NCBI GenBank assembly: GCA_032128115.1 | Contig: JAQBHB010000002.1 | Span: 5,385 to 69,384 of the forward strand | DNA from: Deltaproteobacteria bacterium | GTDB taxonomy: Bacteria > Myxococcota_A > UBA9160 > SMWR01 | Length of the DNA: 64,000 nt | Direction of reading: 5' to 3' | Part shown: piece by piece, positions 3,686-64,000 of the stretch | Numbering within the stretch: position 1 is the stretch's first letter | How the letters are laid out: every line of letters starts with the position of its first letter | The notes under the pieces: model-generated | The model's input: only the letters and a program-made list of their open reading frames with translations | Databases searched by the model: none | What the model was told of the DNA's origin: nothing | Translations under genes and position numbers: made by a program

Positions 3686-4565
3686 GAACCAGGTCGCGCA
3701 GCGGCCGCATGCCCAGGCGGCGGATCCCGCGCGATGCCAGGGCGCGGCGACCGGCGTCACCGCCGTAGAAGCTGCGTTCGAAGTCCCGTGCGTGCGCATC
3801 GCTGGCGATGGCCGACAACTCGTCTCCCGCCCGGGCCGGGTGACAGATCAGGTAGTTGATCCCCGGCCCCAGACGATCGAGCCGTGCCTCGTTGTGGGGT
3901 ATGCCCTGGCCCGGCGCAAAGCCCAGCGAATCGTCACAGAAGCCGTCGAGAATCGGAATCCCCTCGGCCTCGAGCGTGACGCAAAGCTTCTCGAACACCG
4001 CCTCGGCCCCGCCGAGCCCGCGCCGCGCAAGGGTCTCGCGGTCCGGGCGCACGGCGAAGACCGGCAGCCGGAACTCGCTCGCCAGCTTCGCGTACACCTC
4101 CACCAGGGAGGGCACCAGCACCGTGCCCATGTGGGAGTCCAGGTGGGTGACGTCGATCCCGGCCTCGAGAGCGCGCTCCACCTGGGCGCGCAGCTCGAGC
4201 TCCACCTCTTCGGGGCGCGCCCGGCCCACGGTGTCCATCAGGGTAGCTGGCAGACAGCCCTGGGAGTCCACCAGGGAGGGCACGGCGGAGGCGCCCACGA
4301 CGGGACCCCAGCGGTAGCCGGGCCACTCGGAGTTGAGGGTCAGGTGAACGCCCAGATCGAGATCGGAATCCGCTCGGGCGCGCTGCGCCGCCTCGCGAAA
4401 CCACGGGCACGGCACCATGATGCTCCCGCTGGTGGCGGGGCCGTTGGCGAGGGCCTCGAAGGCGCCATCGTTTGCCGCATGGCACATGCCGATGTCGTCG
4501 CAGTGCACCACAGCCACGCGTTCGTCGTCGCAGAAGCCGAGTCGTTTCCCCAGTGTCGGAGCCAT
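3672..4565 (-). CDS. YdjC/ChbG/HpnK family carbohydrate deacetylase
   Basis: Inner ATG of ORF 3672..5255. MAPTLGKRLGFCDDERVAVVHCDDIGMCHAANDGAFEAL...GVHLTLNSEW...THLDSHMG matches the YdjC-like motifs. Confidence 0.8.
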   Translation of the reverse strand: MAPTLGKRLGFCDDERVAVVHCDDIGMCHAANDGAFEALANGPATSGSIMVPCPWFREAAQRARADSDLDLGVHLTLNSEWPGYRWGPVVGASAVPSLVDSQGCLPATLMDTVGRARPEEVELELRAQVERALEAGIDVTHLDSHMGTVLVPSLVEVYAKLASEFRLPVFAVRPDRETLARRGLGGAEAVFEKLCVTLEAEGIPILDGFCDDSLGFAPGQGIPHNEARLDRLGPGINYLICHPARAGDELSAIASDAHARDFERSFYGGDAGRRALASRGIRRLGMRPLRDLVREPV

Positions 4566-4622
4566 GTTTCGAAAACCTCCCGTGCCCGGTGTGCGGCCGG
4601 ATTCTAACGCCTCGACGGAGGC

Positions 4623-5399
4623 GTGATACCCTGCGGCGCCGTGTCGATCATCGACTTCGAACGAGCGGCCCGTGCCGCCCACGCCGCCGCCGACGCCGCC
4701 CGGCGCGAGATCCTGCCGCGCTTCCGGGCGGTGTCTGTCGAGACCAAGAGCGATGGCTCGCCGGTGACCGAAGCCGACCGGGCGGCCGAGCGGGCCATTC
4801 GCGCGGCCCTGCGCGAGGCCTTTCCCGACTACGCCATCCACGGCGAGGAATACGGAGCCGAGGGCGGTAGCGATGGACCGTGCTGGCTGGTGGACCCCAT
4901 CGACGGAACCCTCGGCTTTGCGCGGGGCATTCCGCTCTTCACGACGCTGATCGCCCTGCTCGTCGATGGAGTGCCCCAGCTCGGGTTGATCGACTGCCCC
5001 AGCGTGGACGAACGCTTCGTGGGCTGGACCGGCGGCGGCTGCCGACGCAACGGGACGCCGGTTCGGGTGTCGACGGAAACCGATCTCTCGCGGGCGGTGA
5101 TCTCCCACGGCGACCCGTTCTGCTTCGACCTGTTCCAGCAGCGGCCGGCCTTCGAACGCATGGCCCGGGAGATCCCCCTGCTGCGCGGCTACTCCGACGC
5201 CTTCGGACACGCCCAGGTCCTGAGCGGCGGTGTCGGCGCCATGCTGGATCTCCACCTGAATCCCTGGGATGCCGCGCCCACCCAGGTGCTGGTACCCGAG
5301 GCGGGCGGCGCGTGTGTAACGCTTTCACACGGCGGCAAGCTGGGGCTCGTGTTCGGAAGCCCCGCCCTCGTCGAGCAGCTGCAGGAGTTCCTGGATTAG
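4623..5399 (+). CDS. Inositol monophosphatase family protein (IMPase / histidinol-phosphatase-like)
   Basis: Contains ...DGSPVTEADRAAE...IHGEE...WLVDPIDGT...WDAAP, the IMPase signature motifs. Confidence 0.85.
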   Translation: MIPCGAVSIIDFERAARAAHAAADAARREILPRFRAVSVETKSDGSPVTEADRAAERAIRAALREAFPDYAIHGEEYGAEGGSDGPCWLVDPIDGTLGFARGIPLFTTLIALLVDGVPQLGLIDCPSVDERFVGWTGGGCRRNGTPVRVSTETDLSRAVISHGDPFCFDLFQQRPAFERMAREIPLLRGYSDAFGHAQVLSGGVGAMLDLHLNPWDAAPTQVLVPEAGGACVTLSHGGKLGLVFGSPALVEQLQEFLD

Positions 5400-12914: not shown

Positions 12915-13319
12915 CGCGGGGATCTCGCCGATCACCGACTGGTTCTCGATGGCCCAGAAGATCTGGAAGTAGTCCGGGTTCTCGATGTAATGGCGAAAGT
13001 AGAAACGACTCGCCCGGCGGAGCTTCTCCACGGGCGAGAGCCCCGGACCCAGGGCGCCCTTGAATTTCTCGTCGAAGATCTCGCCATTGTGGCTGAGGAT
13101 GGCCACGTAGAGTTCGGCCTTGCTGTCGAAATAGCGGTAGAGGGTGCCCTTGGCGACGCCGGCCTTGTCGGCCACCTCGTCCAGATTGGCATTCATGAAG
13201 CCGTCGCGGAAGAAGACCTCCTTGGCGGCTTCCAGGATGCGGCGGTGCGACTCGGCCTTCTTCTGCACCCGGCGCTGGCCGCCCGTGGGCAGGGGCGAGC
13301 CGGTTCTAACCTGTACCAC
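12651..13319 (-). CDS. TetR/AcrR family transcriptional regulator, last gene of the FAS-like operon
   Basis: HRRILEAAKEVFFRDGFMNANLDEVADKAGVAKGTLYRYFDSKAELY is the canonical TetR HTH. Its start overlaps the carboxylase stop by 14 nt. Confidence 0.9.
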   Translation of the reverse strand: MVQVRTGSPLPTGGQRRVQKKAESHRRILEAAKEVFFRDGFMNANLDEVADKAGVAKGTLYRYFDSKAELYVAILSHNGEIFDEKFKGALGPGLSPVEKLRRASRFYFRHYIENPDYFQIFWAIENQSVIGEIPASLVEQVTCLWERNLRMLAQIIEEGVREGVFLDYDPWETANILWTLANGIIQTERSAQRRRLRRRRLDRVFDDAIDLFLRGLTRHAGA

Positions 13320-16300
13320 GAACCAGCTCGGCGATCAGGTAGGGCCTCATGTCTTCGGGTTCCACGAGGGTTTCCAGGGAGCCCACCTCGCGGGCTCGCT
13401 CCACAGTGTGAACTCCATCGAACTCCGTGGCCAGCTCCGATTGCTTCTCCAGGTAGACCTTCCTCCAGGTCTTCTCCCACTCCGGGGAAGCGCCGCCACT
13501 CTCGGGGCGCCGGGCCGCCTGGCGTAGCGCCTCGATCCGAGGATCGGAGGCGGTCCGGGCCCGCACCTCGCGTCCCAGCACCACGGCGGCCGCGGGAGCG
13601 CCGCCGATCACCGAGGCGTAGGAGCCGGTCAGGGCCGCCGCGTGGAGGCTCTCGTTGAGCGCACGCGAGAAGACCACGTAGGCGCCGCCGTGGTAGCGGG
13701 ACACCACCAGGAAGAGCAACGGCCCCTCGAAGTTCACCACCGCGCGGGCGATCTCCGCCCCGTATTCGAGCTGCCGCTTGCGCATGGACTCGGGCGAGCC
13801 ATCGAAGCCGGAGAGGTTGGCCAGGATCACCACCGGGCGGTTGCCGCTGGCGGCGTTCAGGGCCCGGGCCACCTTCTTCGAGGACTGGGGGAACAGGGTG
13901 CCGCCCGACCAGGCCGTGGGGCCGTCTGCCGGGCGGTAGCCCGACCGCGGCAGGGTCCGGCTCTCGATGCCGATCAGGCTGACCGGTCGACCGCCCAGGT
14001 GGGTGTCCCAGACGATGGCCGTCTCGGCCCCGGCCCAGCCGCGCCAGCGCTCCAGGAAGCCGCCGTCGTGATCCACCACCGACTGCATCACGGCGCGCAT
14101 GGAGAAGGGTCGTTTGCGGCCCGGGTTGGTGTCGGCATCGAAGATCTCGCCCACGCTCTCGAAGGGATGATCCTCCTCCGACGCACACGCGAATTCCGTC
14201 ACCAGGCGCTGGCTGGGATCGGCGGTGACGTGGGCGCGTGGCCCCTTCTCACCCGGCACCACATAGGTGTAGCGATAGTGCTCGTATAGGGTTCGATAGG
14301 CGTCCACCAGATCGCGGGCGAAGTACTGGGCCTCGCCGTTGGGACCCATCACACGTTCGTAGCCGCCGATCGCCACCTCATCTTCGGCCGACACGGATCC
14401 CGAAGCCTCCAGCGCCGCACGCCCCGTGAGCACCATGGAGGCTCCGGGGGTCATGATGAGGCAGCCCCGGGTGTGTTGGAGCATGGTGGCCAGGGCGTTG
14501 AAGTAGCTCTGGGCGCCCACGTTGACGCCGGCCACGATCACGTGGATCACGCCACCCGATTCGGTAAACGTGATGATGCGGCGGGCCACGCGCGCCGTGG
14601 CGTCCAGGTTCTCGGTGCCGCTGTCCATGGCGATGCGCGCGCCGCTGGACACGGGCACCCACTCCAGCGGCAGGCCGCTCTGCTCCGCCAGGTCGATCGC
14701 GGCCACGATGCGATCGCACTCGGCCGCCGCCAGCGAGCCCATGCTCACCGTGGGGTCCGAGAGCACGAGCACGCGCTGGATACCTTCCGGGACCTTTTCG
14801 GTGGGCGTCGAGAGGATGCCCATCACGATCGAACAGTCGTTCATCCCATAGGGGCGCCCGGCGACGCTCACGGCCGTCGGGTGCCCGCACGTCGGGTCCA
14901 GATCGAACTCCTCGAACTCGCCCGCCGGGAGCTGGCCGGCCTTCTCGTCACGCGCCACGCCCTGACCGCCCGGCGTCCCGGTGAGAAGCCGAACGATCTC
15001 GTAGGGGTAGAGCAGACGCCGGCGCCGGGCCTTCACCACGTTGCGCTCGTAGTCTCGGGCGGGAACCAGGGGATCACTGTGCACGTCGCGCCACGAGAGT
15101 TCCATATGGCTGCCCGTGGGATCGGAAATCACGACCTCGAGGGAACGCGGCGGTCGGGTGGGCTCGGCGCGATCGAGCACGTTCAGGCGCACCACCACCT
15201 TCTCCAGGCCCAGGTGGCGTGTGGCCGGCGCCAGGCGGCGCGCCAGGCGCTGCACCAGGTCGTCGTCCAGGAACAGGCTCGGGGACACGAACAACGCGAT
15301 GCGATTCCACTGCAGACGCCGGCGCGGGTCGCGCAGGCCCAGGTGGTTTCGCAGCGTGCGCGTCGCCTCGAAGAAGGCGCGCTCGAAGGCCGGCACGTGC
15401 AGCTGCGCCTCGTTTCCGGCGTCGGGTGAGCGACCCCGCACATCGGCAAGCACGAAGATGCGTTCGTCTCCGGGCACGTCAGGACTGCCCAGGTGGAAGC
15501 AGACGATTTCGTCCGGCGCCTCGAGCCGCTCCAGATCGAAGGCGCGCAGGCGGTCCAGGTCGATGCGCGCCGCGGTCTCCGGGTGCAGGCCGTGGAGGCC
15601 CGCGATCGGCACGAGGGGTCCCCCGGGACCCATGTAGCTGGAATGAACCGGGCGACCGTCTTCGGGCAGGTGCGACACGGTCAGGCGCTCGGCCGGGAGT
15701 CCGGAGGCCAGCACCGGCGCCAGGCTGTCGCGCAGTTCGGTCTCGTCGGGCACGGGCCCGGGCACCAGAAGCTCGATGGCGTGGACCTGACTGTGCCCCC
15801 GGCTCTGGGCTGCGGCGCGGGCGGCGCGCGACAGGCGCTCGAGCGCCGGAATCATCTCCTCTCGGCTGGCCACGCTGCCAAGCACCGTGCGGCCGTCGTG
15901 CAGGTCGATGCGCTCCACGTGCACCGTGCCAAGCACGCCGGAAGTGTGGCTCTCCAGCGCGGCCGGCGCGTAGAGCCGACACACGTGCGCCGCCACCGCC
16001 ACCGCGCGCCGGCGCGGATCCTCCTCTACCAGCCAACGGCCCGCGCGATCGAAAACGCTCTGGGGCGACGCCGCCAGGTGAACCAGCACGGCGGCGGGCG
16101 GCGGCGTGGGTGCCGACTCGGCGGCGGCCAGCCAGGCCTCCACCTCCTTGGTGGTGCGGCGCGCCTCGTTTTCCAGCTTCGGCCCTTCGAAGATGGCGTA
16201 ACCCGCCTCGATGGCGACGTCCGCCAGGGCGTCGGGCACCAGGCCGCGCATACCGGCGGTGAGCGAGAGCACCTCGGAGAGCGACTCGTCGTCGGACAGG

Positions 16301-18909
16301 TGGATCCCCGATGCGGCCAGCTCGTGGATGCGCCGGATGATTCCCAGGGCCAACCGATGGCGAAGCTCAGGCGACAGCTGCGACGCCAGCAAGCGCAGCA
16401 CCGCGCGTTCGAGGGGATCGTCGTGGCGAAGGCTCGACACCTGGTAGTGGGCGAGTGACCGGCCCAGCATCTCGACGAATTCGGCGGACTGCCCGGGGGT
16501 GCCAGCCGACATGTGGCGCAGCCAGCCGCGGAGCTGCGCGTGATTCGACGGCCCCGGGTTGCCGCCCAGTGCGGCCTGGGGCGCACGCATGAACAGGCGC
16601 GTGACATCGGTGAACAGGCGCAGCTCGTGGCGCATCTCGGCCATCTCCCACCGGAAGGCCTCCGAGAGCCCGTCCGGGAGCGGAGCCTCCAGGAACGCGG
16701 CGAGCTTCTCGCCGCGCTGGGGGTTCACGTCGTAGCCCATCACGATGCGCCGGATCTCGCTGCGAGCGGTGCGGATGGCGGCACGTCGCGCCTCGGTGTC
16801 GGCGCGATCGGCGGCATGAAGATCGGCGATGCCCTCGTTCTTCCGGGAGAAGAACAGATCGAGGGGATCCGGCTCGCTGGGCAGCTCCAGGCGATATTCG
16901 CCCGCCGTGCCATTGGCATCGGCGCTTTCCGCGGCGATCAGCAGGATCAGCTCACCTGCCGCCACCTGCTGGCCGCGAGCCACCACCAGTTCCTTGACGA
17001 CGCCGCTCACCGGCGCATCGAAGCCGATCTCCATCTTCATGGCTTCGAGCAGTCCCAGACATTGACCGGCCTCCACGCGATCGCCGGGCTTGACGTGCAG
17101 CGCGACCACCACCGCCGGCGTACCGGCCCGCACCTGGCCGGCCAGGTCCGTGCCGAAGCGATAGGGGCGCCCCTCCACCTCGACGCGCAGGCCGCGCTCC
17201 GAAACGTCGTGCAGCACGCGCAGGCTGCGTCCCCCCGTCTCCAGGGTGGCGCGGTGATCCCCCTCGGCGCGCAGGGTGGCGGTGACCACGCGACCTTCCA
17301 GATGGATGCGATAACGCCAGGCGCCCACCGCGAAGACTTCGAGGCGGTAGCTCTCGCCCCGGTGCGTGAGATCCACACGCTGCCCCTTGGAAGCCGGCAG
17401 CGAGGCCGGTGACAGGTTGCTGGGATCGGCGAAGAAGCCGCGCCGCGCCGCGTCGCGGGTTCGCTGGTAGGCGAGGATCGACGCGGCCACCAGCGCTTCG
17501 ACCTCGTGCGCACGGGTGCCGGAACGAAGCTCCGGCGAAGCGTCCAGCCACCCGATGTCGAGCTCTGCGGCGCGATACGGCGGGCTCTCCAGCAGGTCGA
17601 TCAGGAAGCCCTTGTTGGAGGCGCCGCCCTCCACCACCAGCTCGAAGTCCGTGAGCGCCGCCACCAGACGCGCTCGCGCCTCATCGCGGGTGTCGCCTGT
17701 GGCGATCACCTTGGCGATCAGGGAGTCGAATTCGGCGGGCACTCGCGAGCCGGCGGCGACCCCCGTGTCCACGCGGATGCGCGGGCCCATGGCCGGATCG
17801 AAACGACCGATCCGCCCCGGCGCCGGCATGAACTCGGATTGCGGATCCTCGGCGCAGACGCGGGCCTCGATGGCGAACATCGGGCGGGGCTTCAGATCGA
17901 GAGGCAGCGCCTCACCTCGAGCGATCCGGATCTGGAGCTGCACCAGATCCACGTTCCAGATCTCCTCGCTGATGCCGTGCTCCACCTGGAGACGCGGATT
18001 CACCTCCAGGAACCAGAATTCGCCCCCCGACACCAGGAACTCCACGGTTCCCACACCGGTGTACGCGATGCTCTCCGCAAGCCGCACGGCCGCCCGCTCG
18101 ATCGACGCCAGCAGGCGCTTCGGCAGGCCGCTGGGAGGCGCCTCCTCGAGGATCTTCTGGTGACGTCGCTGCACCGAGCAGTCGCGACAGCCCAGGGCGA
18201 TCACGTGGCCGTGCTGATCGCCGGCGATCTGCACCTCCACGTGGCGACCGCCGGAGAGCTTCCGCTCCAGCAACAGCGTGGAATCGCCGAAAGCCGACAG
18301 GCCCTCGGCCGAGGCGGAAGCGAACGCGCTTTCGATCTGCTCTTCGCTCTCCACCACCCGCATGCCACGGCCACCGCCGCCGGACGCGGCCTTCAAGATC
18401 ACCGGGAAGCCGATCCTGCGGGCGGCGCGCGCCGCCGACGCCGCATCCGCCACGGCGCCGTCGCTCCACGGAATCACGGGAAGCCCGGCGCGCTCGGCCA
18501 GCTGCTTGCCGCCCACCTTGTCGCCCACCGCGCGCATCACGTCGCCGGTGGGTCCCAGGAAGCGCATGCCTTCGGCCACTACCCGATCCGCGAACCCGGA
18601 ATCCTCGGCGGCGAACCCCCAACCGGGCCACACCGCGTCGGCCCGGACGTCTCGCAGGGTGTGGATCAGGGGCTCGACGTCCAGATAGGCGCGCACCGGA
18701 CCGCGAGGCGCTTCCAGGCGAACGGCGCGATCGGCGTGGCGCACGTACGGAGCCTCGCGGTCCGCGTCCGTATACAGGGCCACGCACTCGAGCGACGAGC
18801 CCTCGAGAGCGCGCAGGGCCTTCACGGCGCGAATACAGCGCATGGCCGCCTCGCCGCGATTCGTGATGGCCAGGCGTTCGATGGCTTGGATCTTCGGACG
18901 TCGGCTCAC
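13306..18909 (-). CDS. Single-chain multidomain acyl-CoA carboxylase (biotin carboxylase - BCCP - long linker - carboxyltransferase), LCC-like
   Basis: 1,867 aa. The N-terminal ATP-grasp biotin carboxylase reads IERLAITNRGEAAMRCIRA...GGGGRGMRVV...EVNPRLQVEH. The biotinyl motif is LEAMKMEIGF (Lys codon at 17035-17037). The C-terminal carboxyltransferase reads VGAQSYFNALATML...ILANLSGFDGSPESMRKRQLEYGAEIARAVVNFEGPLLFLVVSRYHGGAYVVFS. Confidence 0.9.
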   Translation of the reverse strand: MSRRPKIQAIERLAITNRGEAAMRCIRAVKALRALEGSSLECVALYTDADREAPYVRHADRAVRLEAPRGPVRAYLDVEPLIHTLRDVRADAVWPGWGFAAEDSGFADRVVAEGMRFLGPTGDVMRAVGDKVGGKQLAERAGLPVIPWSDGAVADAASAARAARRIGFPVILKAASGGGGRGMRVVESEEQIESAFASASAEGLSAFGDSTLLLERKLSGGRHVEVQIAGDQHGHVIALGCRDCSVQRRHQKILEEAPPSGLPKRLLASIERAAVRLAESIAYTGVGTVEFLVSGGEFWFLEVNPRLQVEHGISEEIWNVDLVQLQIRIARGEALPLDLKPRPMFAIEARVCAEDPQSEFMPAPGRIGRFDPAMGPRIRVDTGVAAGSRVPAEFDSLIAKVIATGDTRDEARARLVAALTDFELVVEGGASNKGFLIDLLESPPYRAAELDIGWLDASPELRSGTRAHEVEALVAASILAYQRTRDAARRGFFADPSNLSPASLPASKGQRVDLTHRGESYRLEVFAVGAWRYRIHLEGRVVTATLRAEGDHRATLETGGRSLRVLHDVSERGLRVEVEGRPYRFGTDLAGQVRAGTPAVVVALHVKPGDRVEAGQCLGLLEAMKMEIGFDAPVSGVVKELVVARGQQVAAGELILLIAAESADANGTAGEYRLELPSEPDPLDLFFSRKNEGIADLHAADRADTEARRAAIRTARSEIRRIVMGYDVNPQRGEKLAAFLEAPLPDGLSEAFRWEMAEMRHELRLFTDVTRLFMRAPQAALGGNPGPSNHAQLRGWLRHMSAGTPGQSAEFVEMLGRSLAHYQVSSLRHDDPLERAVLRLLASQLSPELRHRLALGIIRRIHELAASGIHLSDDESLSEVLSLTAGMRGLVPDALADVAIEAGYAIFEGPKLENEARRTTKEVEAWLAAAESAPTPPPAAVLVHLAASPQSVFDRAGRWLVEEDPRRRAVAVAAHVCRLYAPAALESHTSGVLGTVHVERIDLHDGRTVLGSVASREEMIPALERLSRAARAAAQSRGHSQVHAIELLVPGPVPDETELRDSLAPVLASGLPAERLTVSHLPEDGRPVHSSYMGPGGPLVPIAGLHGLHPETAARIDLDRLRAFDLERLEAPDEIVCFHLGSPDVPGDERIFVLADVRGRSPDAGNEAQLHVPAFERAFFEATRTLRNHLGLRDPRRRLQWNRIALFVSPSLFLDDDLVQRLARRLAPATRHLGLEKVVVRLNVLDRAEPTRPPRSLEVVISDPTGSHMELSWRDVHSDPLVPARDYERNVVKARRRRLLYPYEIVRLLTGTPGGQGVARDEKAGQLPAGEFEEFDLDPTCGHPTAVSVAGRPYGMNDCSIVMGILSTPTEKVPEGIQRVLVLSDPTVSMGSLAAAECDRIVAAIDLAEQSGLPLEWVPVSSGARIAMDSGTENLDATARVARRIITFTESGGVIHVIVAGVNVGAQSYFNALATMLQHTRGCLIMTPGASMVLTGRAALEASGSVSAEDEVAIGGYERVMGPNGEAQYFARDLVDAYRTLYEHYRYTYVVPGEKGPRAHVTADPSQRLVTEFACASEEDHPFESVGEIFDADTNPGRKRPFSMRAVMQSVVDHDGGFLERWRGWAGAETAIVWDTHLGGRPVSLIGIESRTLPRSGYRPADGPTAWSGGTLFPQSSKKVARALNAASGNRPVVILANLSGFDGSPESMRKRQLEYGAEIARAVVNFEGPLLFLVVSRYHGGAYVVFSRALNESLHAAALTGSYASVIGGAPAAAVVLGREVRARTASDPRIEALRQAARRPESGGASPEWEKTWRKVYLEKQSELATEFDGVHTVERAREVGSLETLVEPEDMRPYLIAELVRGTG

Positions 18910-55907: not shown

Positions 55908-56773
55908 TGCGCGACGGGCCCGGGGCCCGGATCGCGCTTGCGGGTCTTCATCGCCTCGAAGTAGGCAACGATCGCGTCGAGCTGGCCATCCGTCAGGTGC
56001 CGGTGGGCCGGCATGGTCGTGTAGCGAAAGCTCTGGGGATCCCGGACGAAGGCCTTGATCTGATCCGCCGGACGGTACTCGACGATGCTGCGGGGCACGT
56101 TCAGGTCCGGGCCGATCTTTCCGCCCTCCCCGTTCACGGCGTGACAGGCCACGCATTCGCTGCGGAAGATCGCGAAGCCCGACCAGGCCGGGTCCTCCGA
56201 GGGCACGCCCCGGGGCAGCGTGTGCGGGTACTCCGAGTCGAATGCGGCGATCTCGATGCTGGCCAGCTGGAACGGCCAGGGGTAGCGGTTCGTGTCGTTC
56301 TGGCCCGGGCGCGACCAGATCATGTAGAAGGGGCCCGGATCCAGCTGCCGGCGATCGATGGGCTCCCAGCTGCCGTCGTCGCGTTCGGCGTCCGCGATCG
56401 CCAGGTATCCGCCCGCTTCCAGCAGCCGCGCCCCGGCCGCGGGCCTCGTGTAGCCGTCGAGAGCGCGCAGGAAGAAGTTCTGGTCGCCCATTTGCGTCAC
56501 GGATTCACCGAAGCCCAGCACGAGTACGCTGCGCAGCGGGCAGGCCAGGAAGTCCTTGGGGCGGCCGTAGTAGGGATCGTCCACCTGGATGCGGGTGGGA
56601 GTGCAGGCCGACTCGATGGCGGCGCGATCCAATTCAGCAACCGTCTCGCCGTTGCGCTTGAATCGCAGCACGCCATCCGACGCGTTCGCCGCAGCGGCCG
56701 TCGTACTCGCAGCGAGCCACACGGCGGCCAGGACCGGAACGAGAGCCGTTGCGCGCATGGGGAGCGCGAGCAT
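55904..56773 (-). CDS. Secreted c-type cytochrome-domain protein
   Basis: Signal peptide, a ~190-aa N-terminal domain, then the heme site CVACHAVNGEGGKIGPDL and a distal ...TTMPAH. Confidence 0.7.
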   Translation of the reverse strand: MLALPMRATALVPVLAAVWLAASTTAAAANASDGVLRFKRNGETVAELDRAAIESACTPTRIQVDDPYYGRPKDFLACPLRSVLVLGFGESVTQMGDQNFFLRALDGYTRPAAGARLLEAGGYLAIADAERDDGSWEPIDRRQLDPGPFYMIWSRPGQNDTNRYPWPFQLASIEIAAFDSEYPHTLPRGVPSEDPAWSGFAIFRSECVACHAVNGEGGKIGPDLNVPRSIVEYRPADQIKAFVRDPQSFRYTTMPAHRHLTDGQLDAIVAYFEAMKTRKRDPGPGPVAH

Positions 56774-56791
56774 ACCGCGTCGGATCGCGCG

Positions 56792-57670
56792 TCAGTCCCG
56801 CGCGCGACGGATCACCACCAGACGGCCGAGCAACTCGCGCGGAGGATCCTCTTCGAGCACGCGCAGCTCGATGCGGGGCCCCACGCCCTGCACCAGGCGC
56901 GGGCCCGACGCCGTCTCGACGAACCCCTTGGTGCGCAGGGCCCCCAGCCCGCGCAGACGTTCGCAGAGCTCGTCGGCATCCACGCCAGGCTCGATGGCCA
57001 GCTCCGTGGCCTCGTAGGCCTCGTGATCGTGGGGCCGCGGCGTGGCGCTGCGTCGGCGTTTGCGAAGGCCCTCCGGGTCCGGCGGAAACAACAGGTCGGG
57101 ATCGATCTCCCCGTGAACACTGTGCAGCAGCGGCGCATCGGGCTCGATCTCCCGCAAGCGGGCCTCGACCCGTTCGAGATCCCCGGGCGTCACCAGATCC
57201 GTGCGATTCACGAGCAGCAGGTCGGCGGATGAGACCTGCTGGCTGAAGGTGGCGTCGAGATCGCGACCCTCGGCCACCTGATCCGCCGCCACCACCACCA
57301 CGGCCACGTCGTCGTCCACCCACTCGGACACCGGTTCGCGCCAGAAGTTCATCTGCACGTCGAAGGGAAATGCCACGCCCGACGTCTCGACGATCACCCG
57401 ATCGGGCCGCACCCGCTCCCACAACATCTGCAACGTATCCACGAGTTCGTCCGAGAGCCTGCAACAGACGCAGCCGCCCGCGATCTCGGCATAGGCCTCG
57501 TCCCACTGGCCCAACAGGGCCTGGTCGATGCCCAGCTCGCCGAACTCGTTGGAGATCACCGCCACGCGCTGGCCCTGGCGCTGCGACTCCGCAAGGATGT
57601 GGCGCACCAGCGTCGTCTTGCCCGAGCCCAGGAAACCCGACACCACCAGCGCAGGGATGCGATCCCTCAT
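56792..57670 (-). CDS. CobW/COG0523 G3E-family metallochaperone GTPase
   Basis: Contains VSGFLGSGKTTL (P-loop), GCVCC (CxCC metal motif), ETSG and LLVNRTD. Confidence 0.85.
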   Translation of the reverse strand: MRDRIPALVVSGFLGSGKTTLVRHILAESQRQGQRVAVISNEFGELGIDQALLGQWDEAYAEIAGGCVCCRLSDELVDTLQMLWERVRPDRVIVETSGVAFPFDVQMNFWREPVSEWVDDDVAVVVVAADQVAEGRDLDATFSQQVSSADLLLVNRTDLVTPGDLERVEARLREIEPDAPLLHSVHGEIDPDLLFPPDPEGLRKRRRSATPRPHDHEAYEATELAIEPGVDADELCERLRGLGALRTKGFVETASGPRLVQGVGPRIELRVLEEDPPRELLGRLVVIRRARD

Positions 57671-58587
57671 GCGTCCAGGTCACCCTGATTCGGGTCGCGA
57701 ACCGGCTCGGTGCGGAGTTCCGCATACACCCCCAGGTGATCGCTGGGCCAGACTCCCTCCTTTTCGTCGTTGCAGACGATGCTGCAGTGAACGATCTGGC
57801 CCACGCCCGCCGCTCGCGGAAGCCCCGCGAAGATGTAGTCGATGCGCCGGTCGGGCTCGAATTCGGCGCGCGCATACGGATTGCGGTTCGACCAGGTATG
57901 ACCGGGACCCTCGGCCCCCGCCACCCGCCAGGCGTCGAGGAAGCACACGCTGCGTCCCTCGAGGGATTGCAGGCCAGTTACGTATCGGATCTCGGCCGAG
58001 TCGGGCTCGGCGTTGAAGTCGCCCACCAACAGCGGGGGAAAGCCCTCCCGCGGCCGGCGCCGCAGGGCCAGGTCGCACACCGCCGCCACCTGCTTCTCGC
58101 GGATCGCCCCCTGCTCGAACTTCCAGTTCAGGTGGGTGCAGGTGAGACCCACCGGCCCGAAGGGAGCGTCGATCGTCACCGAGATGGCGGCCCGCTTCTC
58201 GCCGTCGCCCCGGTCCGGGAGGCGAAGGGCCTCGCGATCCGCGATGGGCCAGCGGCTGGCCACCGCGTTTCCCACCCGGCCGACCCGGTCCTCCCGGCCC
58301 AGGTGCCAGAAGGGCGACGCCGCCACGGCGGCGATCTGATAACCGCGCGCCGCGAGCAGCTCCGCCACCGGGTCGCGGTCGGGCCAACGCACGGCCTCCT
58401 GGAGACCGATCAGATCGGGCTCCAGGCGATCGATCCACTCCGCGATGCCGCGGGCCCGCTGGGCATACGGCCCCGCCTCGTTCCAGAGATTGAGTGTCAG
58501 AACCGACAGCGTCACCGCGGCCCCCTTCTGCGTGCTGCGTCCAGCAGGGGCGATACTGCAGCCTTGGGGGCGCTCTCGGGGGCTCAT
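57667..58587 (-). CDS. Endonuclease/exonuclease/phosphatase (EEP) family protein
   Basis: Inner ATG of ORF 57667..58803. Contains LTLNLWN...IGLQE...VGDFNA...SDHLGV. The start is uncertain (ATG 58587 or the GTG at VTLSV). Confidence 0.75.
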   Translation of the reverse strand: MSPRERPQGCSIAPAGRSTQKGAAVTLSVLTLNLWNEAGPYAQRARGIAEWIDRLEPDLIGLQEAVRWPDRDPVAELLAARGYQIAAVAASPFWHLGREDRVGRVGNAVASRWPIADREALRLPDRGDGEKRAAISVTIDAPFGPVGLTCTHLNWKFEQGAIREKQVAAVCDLALRRRPREGFPPLLVGDFNAEPDSAEIRYVTGLQSLEGRSVCFLDAWRVAGAEGPGHTWSNRNPYARAEFEPDRRIDYIFAGLPRAAGVGQIVHCSIVCNDEKEGVWPSDHLGVYAELRTEPVRDPNQGDLDA

Positions 58588-58653
58588 GACCTGCAGTTTG
58601 ACAGATTTCCGGAGACCTTCGGCGACGACCCTCCGGAGAAGTAGAATCGGGGG

Positions 58654-59427
58654 ATGCCTGGCGCCGTGATCGTGATTCCCTGCTTCAACGAGGCCGGGCG
58701 GCTCGCCGCGGACCGGTTCGCCTCGTTCGCGGCGGCGGATCCTTCGGTGAACTTCCTGTTCGTGGACGATGGCAGCAGCGACGCAACACTCGAGGTGCTG
58801 CACAAGCTCGAGCAGCGGGATCCAGCCAGGTTTTCAGTGCTTGCGCTGACCCACAACCAGGGCAAGGCCGAGGCCGTGCGTCGCGGGATGCTGGCAGCGC
58901 TTGCGCAGGAGCCCCGCACCCTGGGCTTCTGGGACGCCGACCTGGCGACGCCGCTCGACGCCATCCCGTCCTTCCTGGCGCTTCTGGAAGAGCGACCGGA
59001 CCTGCAGATGGTGCTGGGGTCGCGAGTGAAGCTGATGGGACGGGTGATCGAGCGCAGGGCCGTGCGCCACTATCCCGGCCGGGTGCTCGCCACGTTGTGT
59101 TCCCTGGTCCTGAAACTCGGCGTCTACGACACCCAATGCGGCGCGAAGCTCTTTCGCAACGCGCCGGAAGTGGCGGCGCTCTTCCAGCAGCCCTTCCTCG
59201 CCGGCTGGCTCTTCGACGTGGAGCTGCTGGCGCGCTTCCTCCGTGGCCGGCGCGGCAGCGGCAAGCCGCCCGCAGCCGACGCCATCTACGAGTTCGCGCT
59301 CCACGAGTGGCGCGACGTTCCCGGCTCGAAGATCCGACCCGGGGATTTCTTCCGGGCCCTGGCCGATCTGGTCAAGATCTTCCGCCGCTACGGGGGCGAC
59401 CGCGACAATGAGCGTCGAGACCACTGA
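58654..59427 (+). CDS. GT2 family glycosyltransferase (polyprenyl-phosphate hexosyltransferase-like)
   Basis: Contains VIVIPCFNEAGRL...FLFVDDGSSDAT...NQGKAEAVRRG...YDTQCGAKLF. Confidence 0.8.
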   Translation: MPGAVIVIPCFNEAGRLAADRFASFAAADPSVNFLFVDDGSSDATLEVLHKLEQRDPARFSVLALTHNQGKAEAVRRGMLAALAQEPRTLGFWDADLATPLDAIPSFLALLEERPDLQMVLGSRVKLMGRVIERRAVRHYPGRVLATLCSLVLKLGVYDTQCGAKLFRNAPEVAALFQQPFLAGWLFDVELLARFLRGRRGSGKPPAADAIYEFALHEWRDVPGSKIRPGDFFRALADLVKIFRRYGGDRDNERRDH

Positions 59428-60277
59428 GACGAGGATCAAGAGCATCCTCACCCGGACGACCGGCTACCTGAAGAACGTCTCTTCCCATTCGCTGCAGCCC
59501 TACCGGGGCTGCACCTTCGGAAAGTCGCTGTGTGGCGTGGGCTGCTACGTACAGCACAACGGATTCCTCACGCGCGGCGCTCCCTGGGGCAGCTTCCTCG
59601 AGGCGCGCACCAATGCGGCCGAGGCCTACCGGGCCCAGCAGCCCCGCGAGCAGCGCTGGGCGCGGCGCTCCCGGGGCCGCTTCGCAATCTTCATGTCCAG
59701 CTCCACCGACCCCTTCGTGCCCCAGGAGCGCAGGTCCCGCATCTCGCAAGGCGTGCTCACGGCCATGTGCGAGCTTCCGCCCGACGAGCTGGTGCTGCAG
59801 ACACACACGCACCGGGTCACCGACTACCTGGATATCTACCGCGAACTCGCGCGCCGCTGCGCGCTGCGCATCCACATCTCGATCGAGAGCGATCTCGATC
59901 GGCTCCCCTATCTACCGGCACCCGCGAGCTCCGTGGATCACCGCTTCGAGGCCGCGCAGACACTCAAACGGGCCGGCCTGCAGGTGGTGATCACCGTGGC
60001 GCCGTTGTTTCCGATCCGGGAGCCGCAGGTTTTCTTCCAGCGCATCGCCGACGCCGCCGACAGCTGCGTGATCGATCACTTCATCGGCGGCGATGGTTCT
60101 AAAGGCGGCGCGCGCACCGCGCGCACCGCGCTGCTGACGTCCATGGAAGCCGTCGACCCGGATTCCATCGGGCTGGCCTATCGCGATCGCATGATCCAGG
60201 TGGCGCGCCAGGTGATGCCCGGACGCGTGGGGGTCTCGATCGACGGCTTCGCGGGCCGCAGGCTGCCCGCCATCTGA
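59408..60277 (+). CDS. Radical-SAM-like protein of the COG1533 (SplB/DNA-photolyase-like) type with atypical Cys spacing
   Basis: Inner ATG of ORF 59243..60277. Contains SLQPYRGCTFGKSLCGVGCYV (C-x6-C-x3-C instead of C-x3-C-x2-C) and MSSSTDPFVPQE (family-like TDPYQP.E). Overlaps GT2 by 20 nt. Confidence 0.6.
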   Translation: MSVETTETRIKSILTRTTGYLKNVSSHSLQPYRGCTFGKSLCGVGCYVQHNGFLTRGAPWGSFLEARTNAAEAYRAQQPREQRWARRSRGRFAIFMSSSTDPFVPQERRSRISQGVLTAMCELPPDELVLQTHTHRVTDYLDIYRELARRCALRIHISIESDLDRLPYLPAPASSVDHRFEAAQTLKRAGLQVVITVAPLFPIREPQVFFQRIADAADSCVIDHFIGGDGSKGGARTARTALLTSMEAVDPDSIGLAYRDRMIQVARQVMPGRVGVSIDGFAGRRLPAI

Positions 60278-60420
60278 TTCGTAAGTCGAGGCGCTCTCCC
60301 TCGAAGTACGCCTCGGGTTCCTCGGGCTCGAGCCCGGCCCAGTCCCTCGTGTTGAGTGCAGCGGCACTGTGTTCGCGGTGCCAATCCGTGATCACGAGTG
60401 GCCTCGCCATGCCGAAGAAC

Positions 60421-60495
60421 CCCGATGCCAGAACGCTACCGAATTCGGAAATGGCAAGCTGTCTGTTGTCGGCTGCAAGCCTTTGTTGGGCGGCT
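60421..60495 (-). repeat. Truncated attC-like site (R''-proximal half only), distal end of the array
   Basis: Roughly 80% identical by eye over ~75 bp to 63695-63769 (cccgatgcca...agctgtctgttgtc.gctgcaagcc.ttgttgg.cggc). It ends with GTTGGGCGGCT. No complementary ..CCCAAC arm is found to its left. Confidence 0.65.
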
Positions 60496-60526
60496 ACGCG
60501 CCCCACCGCGGTCTGCGATCCCCATG

Positions 60527-62209
60527 CTAGGAATGCCTCTTGGATTCCTCTACAAGGCGCCGCGCGTGCGATATAGCATCGACAAAATTCGCAAATAGTT
60601 GATCCTCGCCGATACGCTCGATTGCACCGCTTCGCTCGAGGGCTATCAACGGCTGAGCGTGGAGGCCCGAGAGAAGGAGATGCGCGCCGCGGCGCTGCAG
60701 ACGGTCGGCGACTTCCTCGAGTGCATGGAGCCCGGTTGCGTCGATCGCGAGGACATGTCTCATCCGAAGGATGACGACGGTCGGCGCAGTCTGAGCAGCG
60801 AGGAGCGTTTCCGTGAACTTGCTGGCCGCACCGAAGCAGAAGGAGCCGTTGATCTCGAAAACCTCCACTTCGGCTGGAACCTCCACCGCGCCGTTCTCGA
60901 CGAAGTCGACCCTGTCGTAGTCAACGATGTCGCGGATGGGCTTCACCTCCGTTACTTCCGCCATCCGGCGCATGAACAGAAGCGACGCCAAGACGACCCC
61001 GACTTGAATGGCAACAGTCAGATCGATGACCACCGTCAGCAAGAAGGTCGCGACCATGACGAGTGCATCGCTGCGCGGTCCGCGCAGCAGCCTCAGGAAC
61101 ACGTGCCACTCGCTCATGTTGTAGGCGACGACCACCAGAATTCCCGCCATTGTCGCCATTGGGATCAGGGATGCCCACCTTCCAGCGACTACGAGGATGC
61201 CAAGGAGCGTCGCCGCGTGAACGATTCCAGCGATCGGGGTGCGACCACCATTTCGCACATTGGTCGCAGTGCGCGCGATCGCACCGGTAGCTGGGATTCC
61301 GCCGAATAACGGCGAGGCTACGTTGGCGATTCCTTGCGCCAGAAGCTCGGCGTTGGACCGGTGACGGCCTCCGATTAGGCCATCGGCCACGACAGCACTG
61401 AGAAGGGACTCGATCGCCGCCAGAAGAGCAATTGTGATTGCAGGGGAGACAAGATCGGGGACCTGGTTCCAGTCGACTTCCAGAACTCTGAATGACGGAA
61501 ACGAGCTGGGTACATCGCCGAACCGACTGTGGATTGTGTCGACGTTCAAGCCGAAGATGTGGACGATCGCTGTCGTTGCGATGAGCGCGACCATTGGGCC
61601 CGGCATACGGCTCGTTACCTTCGGCCACAGCTGAATGATCGCGACTGTGCCGAGGAAGATCGCGGCGGCGCCGAGATTCAACGTACGGATGTTGGCCGCG
61701 TACGCGGTGAGCTTTGCCAGGAAGTCCGCCGGCACGGCTCCGATTTCGAGCCCGAGCGCGTCGCCAACCTCCGCTGTCGCAATGATCAGGGCGATTCCGG
61801 TCGTGAATCCGACTGTGACCGGGTATGGCATGAAGCGAATGACGTCACCGAGTCGCGCGAGCGCCATGATTCCGAGAAAGCAGCCAGCCATCAGTGTCGC
61901 GACAGCAAGACCCTGGTATCCAAACTCTCCGACAATGGCAGCAACGAGAACAACGAAGGCGCCAGTCGGCCCGCCAATCTGGACCCGGCTTCCACCGAAC
62001 AGCGAGATTGCAAATCCCGCGATGATGGCCGTGTAGAGGCCCTGTTCGGGTCGAACGCCGGAAGCGATCGCAAAGGCGATGGCCAACGGAAACGCCACTA
62101 TGCCGACAACGACCCCCGCGAGCGCGTCTCGCGTGAAATCTTGCGCGGAGTATCCCTCGCGAATCGTTGTGGCGAGCTTGGGCTCGAATTCGAGTGGTAG
62201 AAGGCGCAT
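60527..62209 (-). CDS. SulP family anion transporter with C-terminal STAS domain (cassette ORF)
   Basis: Contains DALAGVVVGIVAFPLAIAFAIASG... and has many TM segments. The C-terminal region ...FEINGSFCFGAASKF...VVILRMRHVLAIDATGLHALEEV is a STAS domain. ATG 62209 (RBS-like AAGGAA) is preferred over GTG 62233, which lies inside the attC. Confidence 0.85.
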   Translation of the reverse strand: MRLLPLEFEPKLATTIREGYSAQDFTRDALAGVVVGIVAFPLAIAFAIASGVRPEQGLYTAIIAGFAISLFGGSRVQIGGPTGAFVVLVAAIVGEFGYQGLAVATLMAGCFLGIMALARLGDVIRFMPYPVTVGFTTGIALIIATAEVGDALGLEIGAVPADFLAKLTAYAANIRTLNLGAAAIFLGTVAIIQLWPKVTSRMPGPMVALIATTAIVHIFGLNVDTIHSRFGDVPSSFPSFRVLEVDWNQVPDLVSPAITIALLAAIESLLSAVVADGLIGGRHRSNAELLAQGIANVASPLFGGIPATGAIARTATNVRNGGRTPIAGIVHAATLLGILVVAGRWASLIPMATMAGILVVVAYNMSEWHVFLRLLRGPRSDALVMVATFLLTVVIDLTVAIQVGVVLASLLFMRRMAEVTEVKPIRDIVDYDRVDFVENGAVEVPAEVEVFEINGSFCFGAASKFTETLLAAQTAPTVVILRMRHVLAIDATGLHALEEVADRLQRRGAHLLLSGLHAQPLIALERSGAIERIGEDQLFANFVDAISHARRLVEESKRHS

Positions 62210-62227
62210 CGTTCCTTGGCGAACCGT

Positions 62228-62368
62228 GGCCACCCAACGGACCGCGCTTCAGCGGCCGGCGGCGCGTTGCTACCGACCTCGAAACGCCTAGCTCTCCCGG
62301 ATGCTACACGAGGACCGAGAACGCCGACAGTGAAGCCGGCCCGCCTGCAAGCGCATTGTTGGGCGGCC
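62228..62368 (-). repeat. attC-like recombination site (141 bp)
   Basis: The left end is GGCCACCCAAC and the right end GTTGGGCGGCC, which are 10/11 complementary. On the minus strand this reads R'' GCCCAAC ... R' GTTGGGT. Confidence 0.75.
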
Positions 62369-62740
62369 GTTGGACCGAGCTCCGAGAACAGGGCAGCGGC
62401 GAGCTGAGGACGCGCGCCTGAAGCTGAAGGACAGACGGGGGGCAATCGGATGCATTCTTCGCTCCCTTGACCATGTCATTGATTGTGGCGACGAACTCAG
62501 GCCGGAACGGCCGCTGGCCGTCCCGCTCCCACCAGAGTTGAGCAGGCTTCGAGGACAGAATCTCGGAGAGGAAACGTATAGCTCGGTGCCGCCCTGAAGG
62601 ATCATTGCCTGAGTCGATCGAGCGTTCTGCTCCAGAAGGCGTGAATTCTGCCGGATCTGATAGGCGATGTAACCAAGTAGGGTCACCGCCGCGAAAGCGC
62701 CGGTGAGTTCACCGAGCGCGCCGAGTTCTTGCCAAGTCAT
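62304..62740 (-). pseudogene. Small N-terminally TM-anchored cassette protein, apparently frameshifted near 62572-62574
   Basis: ATG 62740: MTWQELGALGELTGAFAAVTLLGYIAYQIRQNSRLLEQNARSTQAMILQGGTELYV. The protein-like continuation FLSEILSSKPAQLWWERDGQRPFRPEFVATINDMVKGAKNASD is in another frame. Adding one T to a T3 run (A3 on plus) joins the two parts. Confidence 0.5.
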
Positions 62741-62753
62741 TGGTTCTCGCGAA

Positions 62754-62887
62754 CGCCGCCCAACGGACATGCGGTTCAGCTGCCGGCCGCTGAACGCCAA
62801 CAACCAGGCAACCAAGATCGCCGCCAGAATGCTACCAAAGTCGGCCTGCGCTACGGCCGGTCAGCTTCCTCGCTTTGTTGGGCGGCC
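62754..62887 (-). repeat. attC-like recombination site (134 bp)
   Basis: The left end is CGCCGCCCAAC and the right end GTTGGGCGGCC. The inner arms cagctgccggccg and cggccggtcagctt pair with one unpaired base. Confidence 0.75.
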
Positions 62888-63615
62888 GGCGATCGACCGC
62901 GCCCCTCGATTGCCTGGATCAACTGCCCTCGGCCAGGTTCTCCGCGAGCCACGATTTTCCCGTCTGCGACGTAATTCTGAAACTGCGCAGGCAATCCATC
63001 GCCGTCGAACCAACGGGCCGAGCTCTGCAGGTGGTAGTGCAGGTGGGGCTCGCTCGAGCGCCCGCTATTTCCGCACGCTGCGATAGGCTGGCCGGCCGTG
63101 ACGCGGTCGCCAATTCCGACAATGAGAGAGCCCGGGATCAGGTGCGCCAGCATCGAGAATTCGCGGTTTCCATGGTCAATCGCGATGTAGTTCCCTGGAG
63201 GGTCGGATCCAAGCTGCCCAGGAACATTCTCAGGAACGCCGTCCTTTAGCGCGACAACGACGCCATTGCCGGGAGCGAGAATCGGTCTTCCATGGCAGTA
63301 GTAGTTCTCGTTCCGACTCCCGTCCCCATGATGCGACATGCCAGACGCCAAGGCCGCGACCGGATCCGCGCCGGGAGCCAGCTCCTGAGCCACCACCACG
63401 AGATCGAGCGCGAATCGCTGGTCTCGTGACACAGCGTGCTGGTTCTCCTCAAGCGTGCGTCCACCCCATACGACCAGCCAGGTATTGCCGAAGGGAAGTC
63501 GCAACTGCGCCTTTGTCTCGTACCGCAGGTACTTACTGGGAGCTTCCTTCGGAGGCTCTGCTGCGCTGAAGTTCGCGACAGTCGCACTTAGAAGCACAAT
63601 GGAAGCGAGTCGCAT
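62851..63615 (-). CDS. Secreted M23 family (LytM-like) metallopeptidase (cassette ORF)
   Basis: Inner ATG of ORF 62851..63708 with GGAG 8 nt upstream. Signal peptide MRLASIVLLSATVANFSAA. Contains YIAIDHGN...MLAHL...GNSGRSSEPHLHYHLQ (HxxxD and HxH motifs). The stop lies inside the next attC. Confidence 0.8.
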   Translation of the reverse strand: MRLASIVLLSATVANFSAAEPPKEAPSKYLRYETKAQLRLPFGNTWLVVWGGRTLEENQHAVSRDQRFALDLVVVAQELAPGADPVAALASGMSHHGDGSRNENYYCHGRPILAPGNGVVVALKDGVPENVPGQLGSDPPGNYIAIDHGNREFSMLAHLIPGSLIVGIGDRVTAGQPIAACGNSGRSSEPHLHYHLQSSARWFDGDGLPAQFQNYVADGKIVARGEPGRGQLIQAIEGRGRSPAAQQSEEADRP

Positions 63616-63627
63616 GGTCAGTGCTCC

Positions 63628-63769
63628 GGCCATCCAACGGATCGGGCTTCTGCTGCAACGGACAGCGCAGACCGTCGACGCTGAGCCGCGGGGTCCCGAT
63701 GCCAGCACTCTACCGATTTCAGGAGCGGCCAGCTGTCTGTTGTCAGCTGCAAGCCCTTGTTGGACGGCC
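63628..63769 (-). repeat. attC-like recombination site (142 bp)
   Basis: The left end is GGCCATCCAAC and the right end GTTGGACGGCC, which are 10/11 complementary. On the minus strand this reads R'' GTCCAAC ... R' GTTGGAT. Confidence 0.75.
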
Positions 63770-64000
63770 GCCCTCGCACTCTGGTGCTTGATTCCGAACC
63801 CAGGTCATCACTGTTTCCTCGAGTCGCGTCGGATAGGAGTAGCCGAGCCTGTCGCCCGTTTCTTCGGCCAGCGAGCGAAAGAGATCGAGCGCCTCGAGTC
63901 GTGCCTGCCAGATCTCGATGGGATCGTAGTGGGGAAACGTCGCTCCCAACCGCTCCATCACGATGGGAGGCGCCCACTCTTCAAGGAACCGTCCGCGTTC
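63743..64000 (-). CDS. Cassette ORF of unknown function, 5' end beyond the right edge
   Basis: The frame stays open to position 64000: ...ERGRFLEEWAPPIVMERLGATFPHYDPIEIWQARLEALDLFRSLAEETGDRLGYSYPTRLEETVMTWVRNQ.... The stop lies inside the attC at 63628-63769. Confidence 0.5.
   Translation of the reverse strand, partial: ERGRFLEEWAPPIVMERLGATFPHYDPIEIWQARLEALDLFRSLAEETGDRLGYSYPTRLEETVMTWVRNQAPECEGGRPTRACS

Follow-up and report, generated by a model that had tools for sequence, protein, structure and literature searches.

The last ~3.7 kb of a 64-kb stretch of contig JAQBHB010000002.1 from a Deltaproteobacteria bacterium (the window, to which coordinates refer unless another contig is named) is occupied by a gene cassette array, in which four co-oriented minus-strand genes are partitioned by three complete attC recombination sites and one partial site, all within 60338–64000. 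A preliminary description had taken the region for an integron-type cassette array that has attC sites but shows no integrase, and this reading has held: the sites match a covariance model, the family to which they belong shows helix covariation and canonical bulges, and members of that family adjoin integron integrases of NCBIfam family TIGR02249. The genes and sites are listed here in the order in which the minus strand reads them; bit scores and E-values of sites are those of the covariance model (R1) described below.

63743–64000, minus strand: 3' part of an ANT(6)-like gene, which runs off the window (Pfam PF04439, streptomycin adenylyltransferase family, E 1.4e-10)
63628–63769, minus strand: attC site 4, 142 nt, R'' GTCCAAC, R' GTTGGAT; 105.2 bits, E 5.7e-22
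62851–63615, minus strand: M23 peptidase gene, 254 aa (PF01551, E 1.3e-15)
62754–62887, minus strand: attC site 3, 134 nt, R'' GCCCAAC, R' GTTGGGC; 84.1 bits, E 2.7e-17
62304–62740, minus strand: small membrane-protein gene, frameshifted (tblastn to homologues in 13 cassette contigs)
62228–62368, minus strand: attC site 2, divergent, 141 nt, R'' GCCCAAC, R' GTTGGGT; 54.1 bits, E 1.3e-10
60527–62209, minus strand: SulP transporter gene with STAS domain, 560 aa (PF00916, E 3e-79; PF01740, E 7e-15)
60338–60495, minus strand: attC site 1, truncated; 30.0 bits, E 2.9e-5, only the 5' half aligned

The three complete sites are imperfect palindromes whose positions and 134–142 bp extent had been recognised earlier, and their 11-nt terminal arms are, as described then, complementary, at 10 of 11 positions. 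On the minus strand they start with GGCCGCCCAAC (site 2), GGCCGCCCAAC (site 3) and GGCCGTCCAAC (site 4) and end with GTTGGGTGGCC, GTTGGGCGGCG and GTTGGATGGCC, respectively. Read in this direction, the core sites of sites 2–4 match the attC consensus R'' = RYYYAAC and R' = GTTRRRY, which had also been noticed. With 134, 141 and 142 nt the sites stand at the upper edge of the known attC range of 57–141 bp. The earlier count of three elements is correct for complete ones and has to be extended by the fourth, truncated site at 60338–60495. This site retains its R''-L''-centre half (60421–60495), of which 60421–60494 proved 85% identical to 63695–63768 of site 4 by repeat finding; the L'-R' half is lost or replaced, and the region forms no hairpin. 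Site 1 marks the fossilised distal end of the array, beside a convergent gene that ends at 60277.

All four sites fall within 3.4 kb and each follows one minus-strand open reading frame (ORF), the arrangement of a gene cassette array, for which at least two attC sites less than 4 kb apart are required, as they are for clusters of attC sites without a nearby integrase (CALINs; Cury et al. 2016, IntegronFinder). The gaps from site to ATG are 12 nt for the M23 gene (ATG 63615), 13 nt for the small ORF (ATG 62740) and 18 nt for SulP (ATG 62209), and the reading frames stop at 63743 (ANT), 62851 (M23), 62304, or 62288 in another frame (small ORF), and 60527 (SulP). The observation that every interval holds one minus-strand ORF starting shortly after a site is thereby upheld, with gaps of 12–18 nt and the stops as first given. 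Site 3 holds the M23 stop codon, and the TGA of the ANT(6)-like gene (63745–63743) falls in the L'' box of site 4. No sigma-70-like promoter was found in 60000–64000. With the crossover placed at G|TT of R', the cassettes are bounded as follows, and the sizes agree with those estimated before.

Beyond 64000 down to 63638, minus strand: ANT cassette
63637–62764, minus strand: M23 cassette, 874 nt
62763–62238, minus strand: small-protein cassette, 526 nt
62237 to about 60338, minus strand: SulP cassette, the last in the array, ~1.9 kb

A structured attC family defined outside the window

The covariance model was built from an alignment (A5) of 76 distinct sites of 131–146 nt from other metagenome contigs, with no window sequence included, and was run on the whole window with filters off. 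Beyond the four sites, the next best match in the 64 kb had E ≥ 0.009, which is noise, and the control loci (1.31 Mb, with many from high-GC actinomycetes) gave no match better than 20.9 bits (E 0.06). The same model marks the inter-cassette sites in the contigs L076, L094, L138 and L077–79. By their scores, the sites in the window can be classed as members of an attC family that was defined independently of the window. The covariance-model check that had been suggested thus returned attC matches with this family-specific model, and the accompanying check for dispersal revealed no further palindromic unit in the 64 kb. Rfam gave no family match at either E-value or gathering thresholds.

A strict structural scan, which required complementary arms, AAC..GTT and AACAA/CCGTT, returned exactly sites 2–4 in the 64 kb; it gave 5 sites over 1.31 Mb of unrelated genomes and 140 among related arrays totalling 0.38 Mb. 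The end motif GTTGGRCGGCC, allowing at most one mismatch, had 10 matches in the window against 6.5 expected, which is near chance; 7 of the 10 lie in 60485–63769. Folded singly as DNA, the sites gave z values of −2.0 to −3.0 (−2.95 for site 4 and −2.08 for site 3), and site 4 forms 32 of the 36 pairs of the family structure.

The structure itself was tested on an alignment of 79 distinct sites (A4) with a hand-drawn structure of two helices, R (11 bp) and L/stem (25 bp). In this alignment 90.9% of cells are paired, compared with 28–43% when the partners are slid, and compensatory changes occur in 23 of the 36 pairs (294 cells), values that none of 500 shuffles reached. The R helix was part of site selection; the 25-bp inner helix is independent of it and carries 19 of the 23 covarying pairs, as in the replacement of GGCGCT/AGCGCC by GGGCTT/AAGCCC, the latter being the form in site 4 of the window. 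AAC and GTT are invariant in all 79 sites. The unpaired positions that are invariant or nearly so comprise the AA after AAC, the TCC before GTT and two bulges, a G in column 21 (79/79) and, in column 28, mostly an A (59/79).

By definition, the extrahelical bases of attC sites occupy position 16 and position 23/24 on the AAC arm of the top strand and enclose a 6-bp stem; the bottom strand usually has G at position 16 and a conserved T at 23/24 (Nivina et al. 2016, PMC5027507). Bulges are present in the family at positions 16 and 23 from R'', on the AAC arm of the ORF-sense strand and separated by a 6-bp stem. This canonical bulge layout, together with the R''/R' consensus, therefore gives the family the defining features of attC sites (PMC5027507). 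The extrahelical bases, for which a check on the folded strands had been proposed, are present in the three complete sites of the window. Sites 3 and 4 have bulges at 16 and 23 (in site 4 a top-strand G and A, respectively), and the 6 nt between them pair at 5 of 6 positions in each; the consensus CAGCTG pairs at all six. Read by hand, site 2 shows top-strand G bulges at three positions, 17, 21 and 25, with a total of 6 bp separating the outer two. At position 23, sites 3 and 4 retain the bottom-strand T, as does 75% of the family. The covarying 6-bp helix follows an asymmetric internal loop.

The centres of the elements had been called variable, which is correct for their length across the family and only partly so for their sequence. 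The centre of the ~142-nt attC class contains a conserved core, TGGTAGnnTyTGGCrTCG (A4 columns about 60–80, e.g. 63708–63690 on the minus strand), with several positions conserved at ≥90%. RNAalifold gives no consistent pairing in this core, while the flanking stems covary. It could be a binding site for a host factor, a second integrase contact or an element of the cassette transcript.

Integron integrases and the completeness of the array

The family was connected to integrases through its relatives. A tblastn search with an IntI1 sequence, used as a probe only, found full-length relatives in L094 (1494–2477) and L138 (1851–2912) and a fragment in L153 (2–196). The L094 and L138 proteins match the TIGR02249 integron integrase model over its whole length, with 433 and 462 bits, respectively, against a cutoff of 265. 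One strand of L094 reads, in order, intI, a spacer of ~150 nt, an attI-like sequence ...GAGTTAGGCGGC, the ATG of cassette 1, an attC site of the family and cassette 2. The position of family attC sites beside TIGR02249 integrases in L094 and L138 indicates that the family is used by real integrons. A search with an IntI profile found at least 7,998 proteins at E ≤ 1e-60; among the best 120 of these, the named members of the IntI clade are annotated as Methylomirabilota/Rokuibacteriota and Vicinamibacterales. In L094 and L138 intI points the same way as the cassettes, whereas the L153 gene is divergent, so either orientation may apply here.

We consider it very probable that 60338–64000 is the integrase-distal end of a chromosomal integron cassette array in a high-GC bacterium. 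The minus strand would present, in order, the ANT(6)-like gene, the M23 peptidase, the decayed small membrane protein and the SulP/STAS transporter, each as a promoterless ORF followed by its attC site. The bottom strand, which is the plus strand of the window, would fold into a hairpin with R''/R' and L''/L' paired and bases 16 and 23 extruded, as the family structure suggests. An integron integrase would bind this hairpin and cleave at the AAC/GTT triplet, and the cassettes would be excised as circles and reinserted at attI; their expression would be driven by a promoter located to the right of 64000, on the integrase side. ORFs and sites agree in orientation, so the array is read leftwards, and any attI or intI would lie past 64000. 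We infer that the integrase is located there or acts in trans, and that the attC sites in the window are still recombined.

Several observations weigh against this interpretation. Site 2 scores only 54 bits with the covariance model. The bulge at position 16 is a bottom-strand C in 79 of 79 sites (a top-strand G, at 63748 and 62866 in the window), where G is usual, and the central spacer is asymmetric, with 2 x 5 nt (AA on the R'' arm and GATCC or GGTCC on the R' arm) in place of the usual 5–6 nt per arm. The tblastn search with IntI1 found no IntI homologue in the 64-kb window, and there is no integrase, attI or Pc within it. Finally, the truncated last attC site and the frameshifted cassette gene are signs of decay. 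The C at position 16, the AA spacer and the conserved core raise the question of whether this soil attC family uses a recognition mode somewhat different from that of VCR and class 1 sites, which we regard as doubtful.

The missing integrase and the decay bear most directly on completeness. A complete integron would show a TIGR02249 intI, encoding a tyrosine recombinase with the IntI-specific domain, within ~4 kb together with attI and Pc; none of these lies in the window, whose edge cuts the array. The alternative is a CALIN, that is, a decaying integron remnant whose cassettes are mobile only through an integrase elsewhere in the genome; it is a sub-case of the cassette-array explanation that differs in completeness, and we give it an appreciable chance, somewhat short of even. 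The lack of IntI in the 64 kb, the truncated terminal attC and the frameshifted cassette gene all favour a CALIN, although decay also affects the distal cassettes of sedentary integrons that are complete. It speaks against a CALIN that the array continues past the window edge in the direction of the expected integrase and that about 10.6 kb of the 74,645-bp source contig lies outside the window, to its left, its right or both. CALINs are about as frequent in genomes as complete integrons, a point in favour, but in draft assemblies attC repeats are a frequent point of breakage within integrons (PMC9024848). Our estimate for the array inclines roughly, and slightly, towards a complete integron over a CALIN.

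We also weighed an artefact of assembly or binning, in which a foreign cassette array would have been misjoined to the chromosome. The GC content of 60–64 kb is 0.61–0.635, compared with 0.635–0.72 (mostly 0.67–0.71) in the rest of the window, so the lower GC first described for the array is real, although the contrast is smaller than the one given for it (57–62% against ~70%). This difference from the flank would fit a misjoin, as would the tendency of attC repeats to break assemblies: two Logan contigs from independent assemblies of different runs, L001 (ERR5010711) and L002 (ERR5010722), end ~30 nt inside site 2, at 62264 and 62262. However, L001 is 100% identical to the window across the junction (56073–62264), a stretch that takes in genes of the chromosome, truncated site 1, the SulP gene and some of site 2, and in L002 the SulP gene recurs, followed by the two gene calls of the flank. 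The agreement of the two contigs confirms the junction between chromosome and array, and a misjoin is in our view very unlikely. The sequence to the right of 62264 is backed by the source contig alone. The end points of L001 and L002 were also considered as evidence of variation in cassette order in the population, a use that was rejected because low coverage or repeat collapse explains them equally well; they may reflect such variation between samples or simply a break in assembly.

Intergenic palindromes of the REP/BIME or MITE type, unrelated to integron recombination, would likewise be GC-rich, imperfect and uniform in size, but their probability is close to nil, given that neither the strict scan nor the covariance model finds a copy in the other 60 kb of the window, that the units stand in a single orientation, each after one co-oriented ORF, that their ends fit RYYYAAC/GTTRRRY with bulges at attC positions 16 and 23, and that family members directly adjoin integron integrases.

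Cassette genes, related arrays and host

The closest view of a related array is provided by L076, a JGI contig of 24 kb with a long series of small co-oriented genes and sites of 140–195 nt between them. The design of these sites, 5' GCCGCCYAAC AA GGCGCTGCAGCTGAC ... GCAGCTGAGCGCC GATCC GTTRGGCGGC 3', visibly matches that of the sites in the window. L076 holds two attC length classes, of ~142 nt (1366–1509 and 3034–3175) and ~173 nt (720–893, 3755–3928, 4508–4703 and 5124–5298), and the longer class seems to possess a conserved centre of its own, ..CTTCGCTCGCAGG.., judged by eye from four L076 sites. The 27-mer GCAGCTGAGCGCCGATCCGTTRGGCGG was found in JGI metagenomes in at least 120 contigs, most with Ga… identifiers and counted regardless of sample type.

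Window positions 64000–63756 are 91.8% identical in nucleotide sequence to L076 2229–2473, and the homology ends 3 nt past the AAC of R''. The neighbour downstream of the ANT gene is the M23 gene in the window, an amidohydrolase fragment in L076 and a MAPEG gene in L077–79, and this combination of a shared ANT cassette with differing neighbours is the mosaic pattern expected of cassettes. A MAPEG-family cassette is present in two arrays (L076 4726–5121 and L077 1723–2115). In L077–79 the covariance model detects no attC between the ANT fragment and the MAPEG gene that follows it, an indication that cassettes at an array end have fused or decayed.

The cassettes had been thought to carry no resistance genes. 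This is so for the SulP/STAS transporter, the M23 peptidase and the membrane protein; the partial ORF, on the other hand, is the ANT(6)-like PF04439 gene. Its fragment shares 88% amino-acid identity with the database protein P0013, and 88%-identical relatives occur in metagenome contigs. In L076 the ANT(6)-like gene consists of two ORFs, of 211 aa (1525–2160) and 108 aa (2157–2483), and the database relatives of the C-terminal part (P0013–P0023) are mostly short, at 61–130 aa. The short relatives and the split in L076 suggest either a recurrent frameshift or a true two-part ANT(6)-like gene. The copy in the window is cut by the window end, so its own split state cannot be judged.

The M23 gene has GGAG 8 nt upstream of its ATG, and its predicted N-terminus resembles a signal peptide. 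Its relatives in the contig scan are distant, with at most 35% identity over most of the length, and the protein is recorded only from the NCBI source contig. Neither SulP, M23 nor the ORF at 60099–60410 had relatives in the fetched arrays by tblastn.

The small ORF, for which a stop at about 62304 had been given, is frameshifted. About 45 N-terminal residues lie in the frame of ATG 62740 and the C-terminal part in another frame, which ends at 62304. Homologues of 150–180 aa with the same N-terminal start were found by tblastn in 13 fetched cassette contigs, and their C-terminal motif KPAQLWWERDGQ..FRPEFV (PG.R.WW in the family) occurs in the other frame of the window copy. This copy is frameshifted and probably also shortened, judging from the lengths of its homologues. 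The family is recognisable by an N-terminal membrane helix, (V/M)T.Q(D/E)LG..GE......LaYLA.QIR.N, and the C-terminal PG.R.WW, and it recurs as a cassette in L159, L177, L161, L154, L167, L097, L180, L124, L163, L076, L199 and L117. Its match to DUF4760 is only sub-threshold.

Outside the array, a gene on the chromosomal side converges on its end:

59408–60277, plus strand: flanking chromosomal gene, 289 aa (L001 gene call; weak radical-SAM match, below the Pfam cutoff)

To the left of this gene GC is at host level. The ORF at 60099–60410 (minus strand) has no Pfam match and no homologue; it was dropped as a coding gene for this reason and is treated as non-coding or a remnant. A tRNA-linked island was also ruled out, as ARAGORN found no tRNA. 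Further into the window, a single-chain acyl-CoA carboxylase of 1,867 aa (13306–18909, minus strand) unites the biotin carboxylase, BCCP and carboxyltransferase functions. Its relatives at E ≤ 1e-100 number more than 2,300; the named ones among the best 120 come from metagenome-assembled genomes (MAGs) of Myxococcales, Myxococcota and 'Deltaproteobacteria', the best of them at 60–66% identity, and the best relative without a name has 80%. On this evidence the host is probably an uncultured member of the Myxococcota, an assignment that we make with moderate confidence.

The host setting had been regarded as unusual, a view that we do not share: the host probably belongs to Myxococcota, and the attC/IntI family is abundant in soil metagenomes (contigs counted regardless of sample type). 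The annotation of the IntI clade across other phyla fits the reported tendency of attC types to track environment more than phylogeny, and attC models specific to single taxa, Deltaproteobacteria and Acidobacteria among them, are already available (PMC8352920). There is a report of integron integrases from MAGs of Myxococcota, for which earlier descriptions are few (PMC12772301).

The known systems closest to the array are sedentary chromosomal integrons, the soil and sediment integrons of the IntI clade in L094 and L138, CALINs and mobile class 1 cassettes. With the Vibrio cholerae VCR array and the Xanthomonas arrays it shares co-oriented promoterless cassettes, long attC sites (about 120–140 nt) of one sequence family, functions that are mostly non-resistance or unknown, stop codons within attC and decay at the distal end. 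It differs from them in its attC sequence family, the bottom-strand C at position 16, the asymmetric 2 x 5 nt spacer and an integrase that is out of view, and in that its attC family, instead of being confined to one species, extends over several phyla and many metagenomes. The IntI-clade integrons of L094 and L138 have the same attC family by covariance model, high GC and two of the cassette types, ANT(6)-like and the small membrane protein weakly resembling DUF4760, whereas in the window no more than the distal part of an array is visible, in a probable Myxococcota host. A CALIN likewise has at least two attC sites less than 4 kb apart and no intI in view, but here the window edge cuts the array and the absence of intI cannot be asserted. 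Mobile class 1 cassettes have R''/R' cores, bulge geometry and cassette logic in common with the array, as well as one cassette of the aminoglycoside nucleotidyltransferase family; in contrast, the attC sites of the window have 134–142 nt where mobile ones typically have 57–70 nt, and the array is chromosomal, is without Tn402/sul1 context and carries a gene of the ANT(6) type rather than aadA.

The array adds one further chromosomal example, from a probable Myxococcota MAG, to a large and poorly described environmental integron pool. Our understanding of integrons is unchanged by it, and the points of specialist interest are the non-G bulge at position 16, the short spacer and the conserved loop core amid compensatory divergence. 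The ~142-nt attC family is common to at least 120 contigs and is linked to an IntI clade that counts thousands of members, and the family model could serve to bin or trace cassettes, including ANT(6)-like ones.

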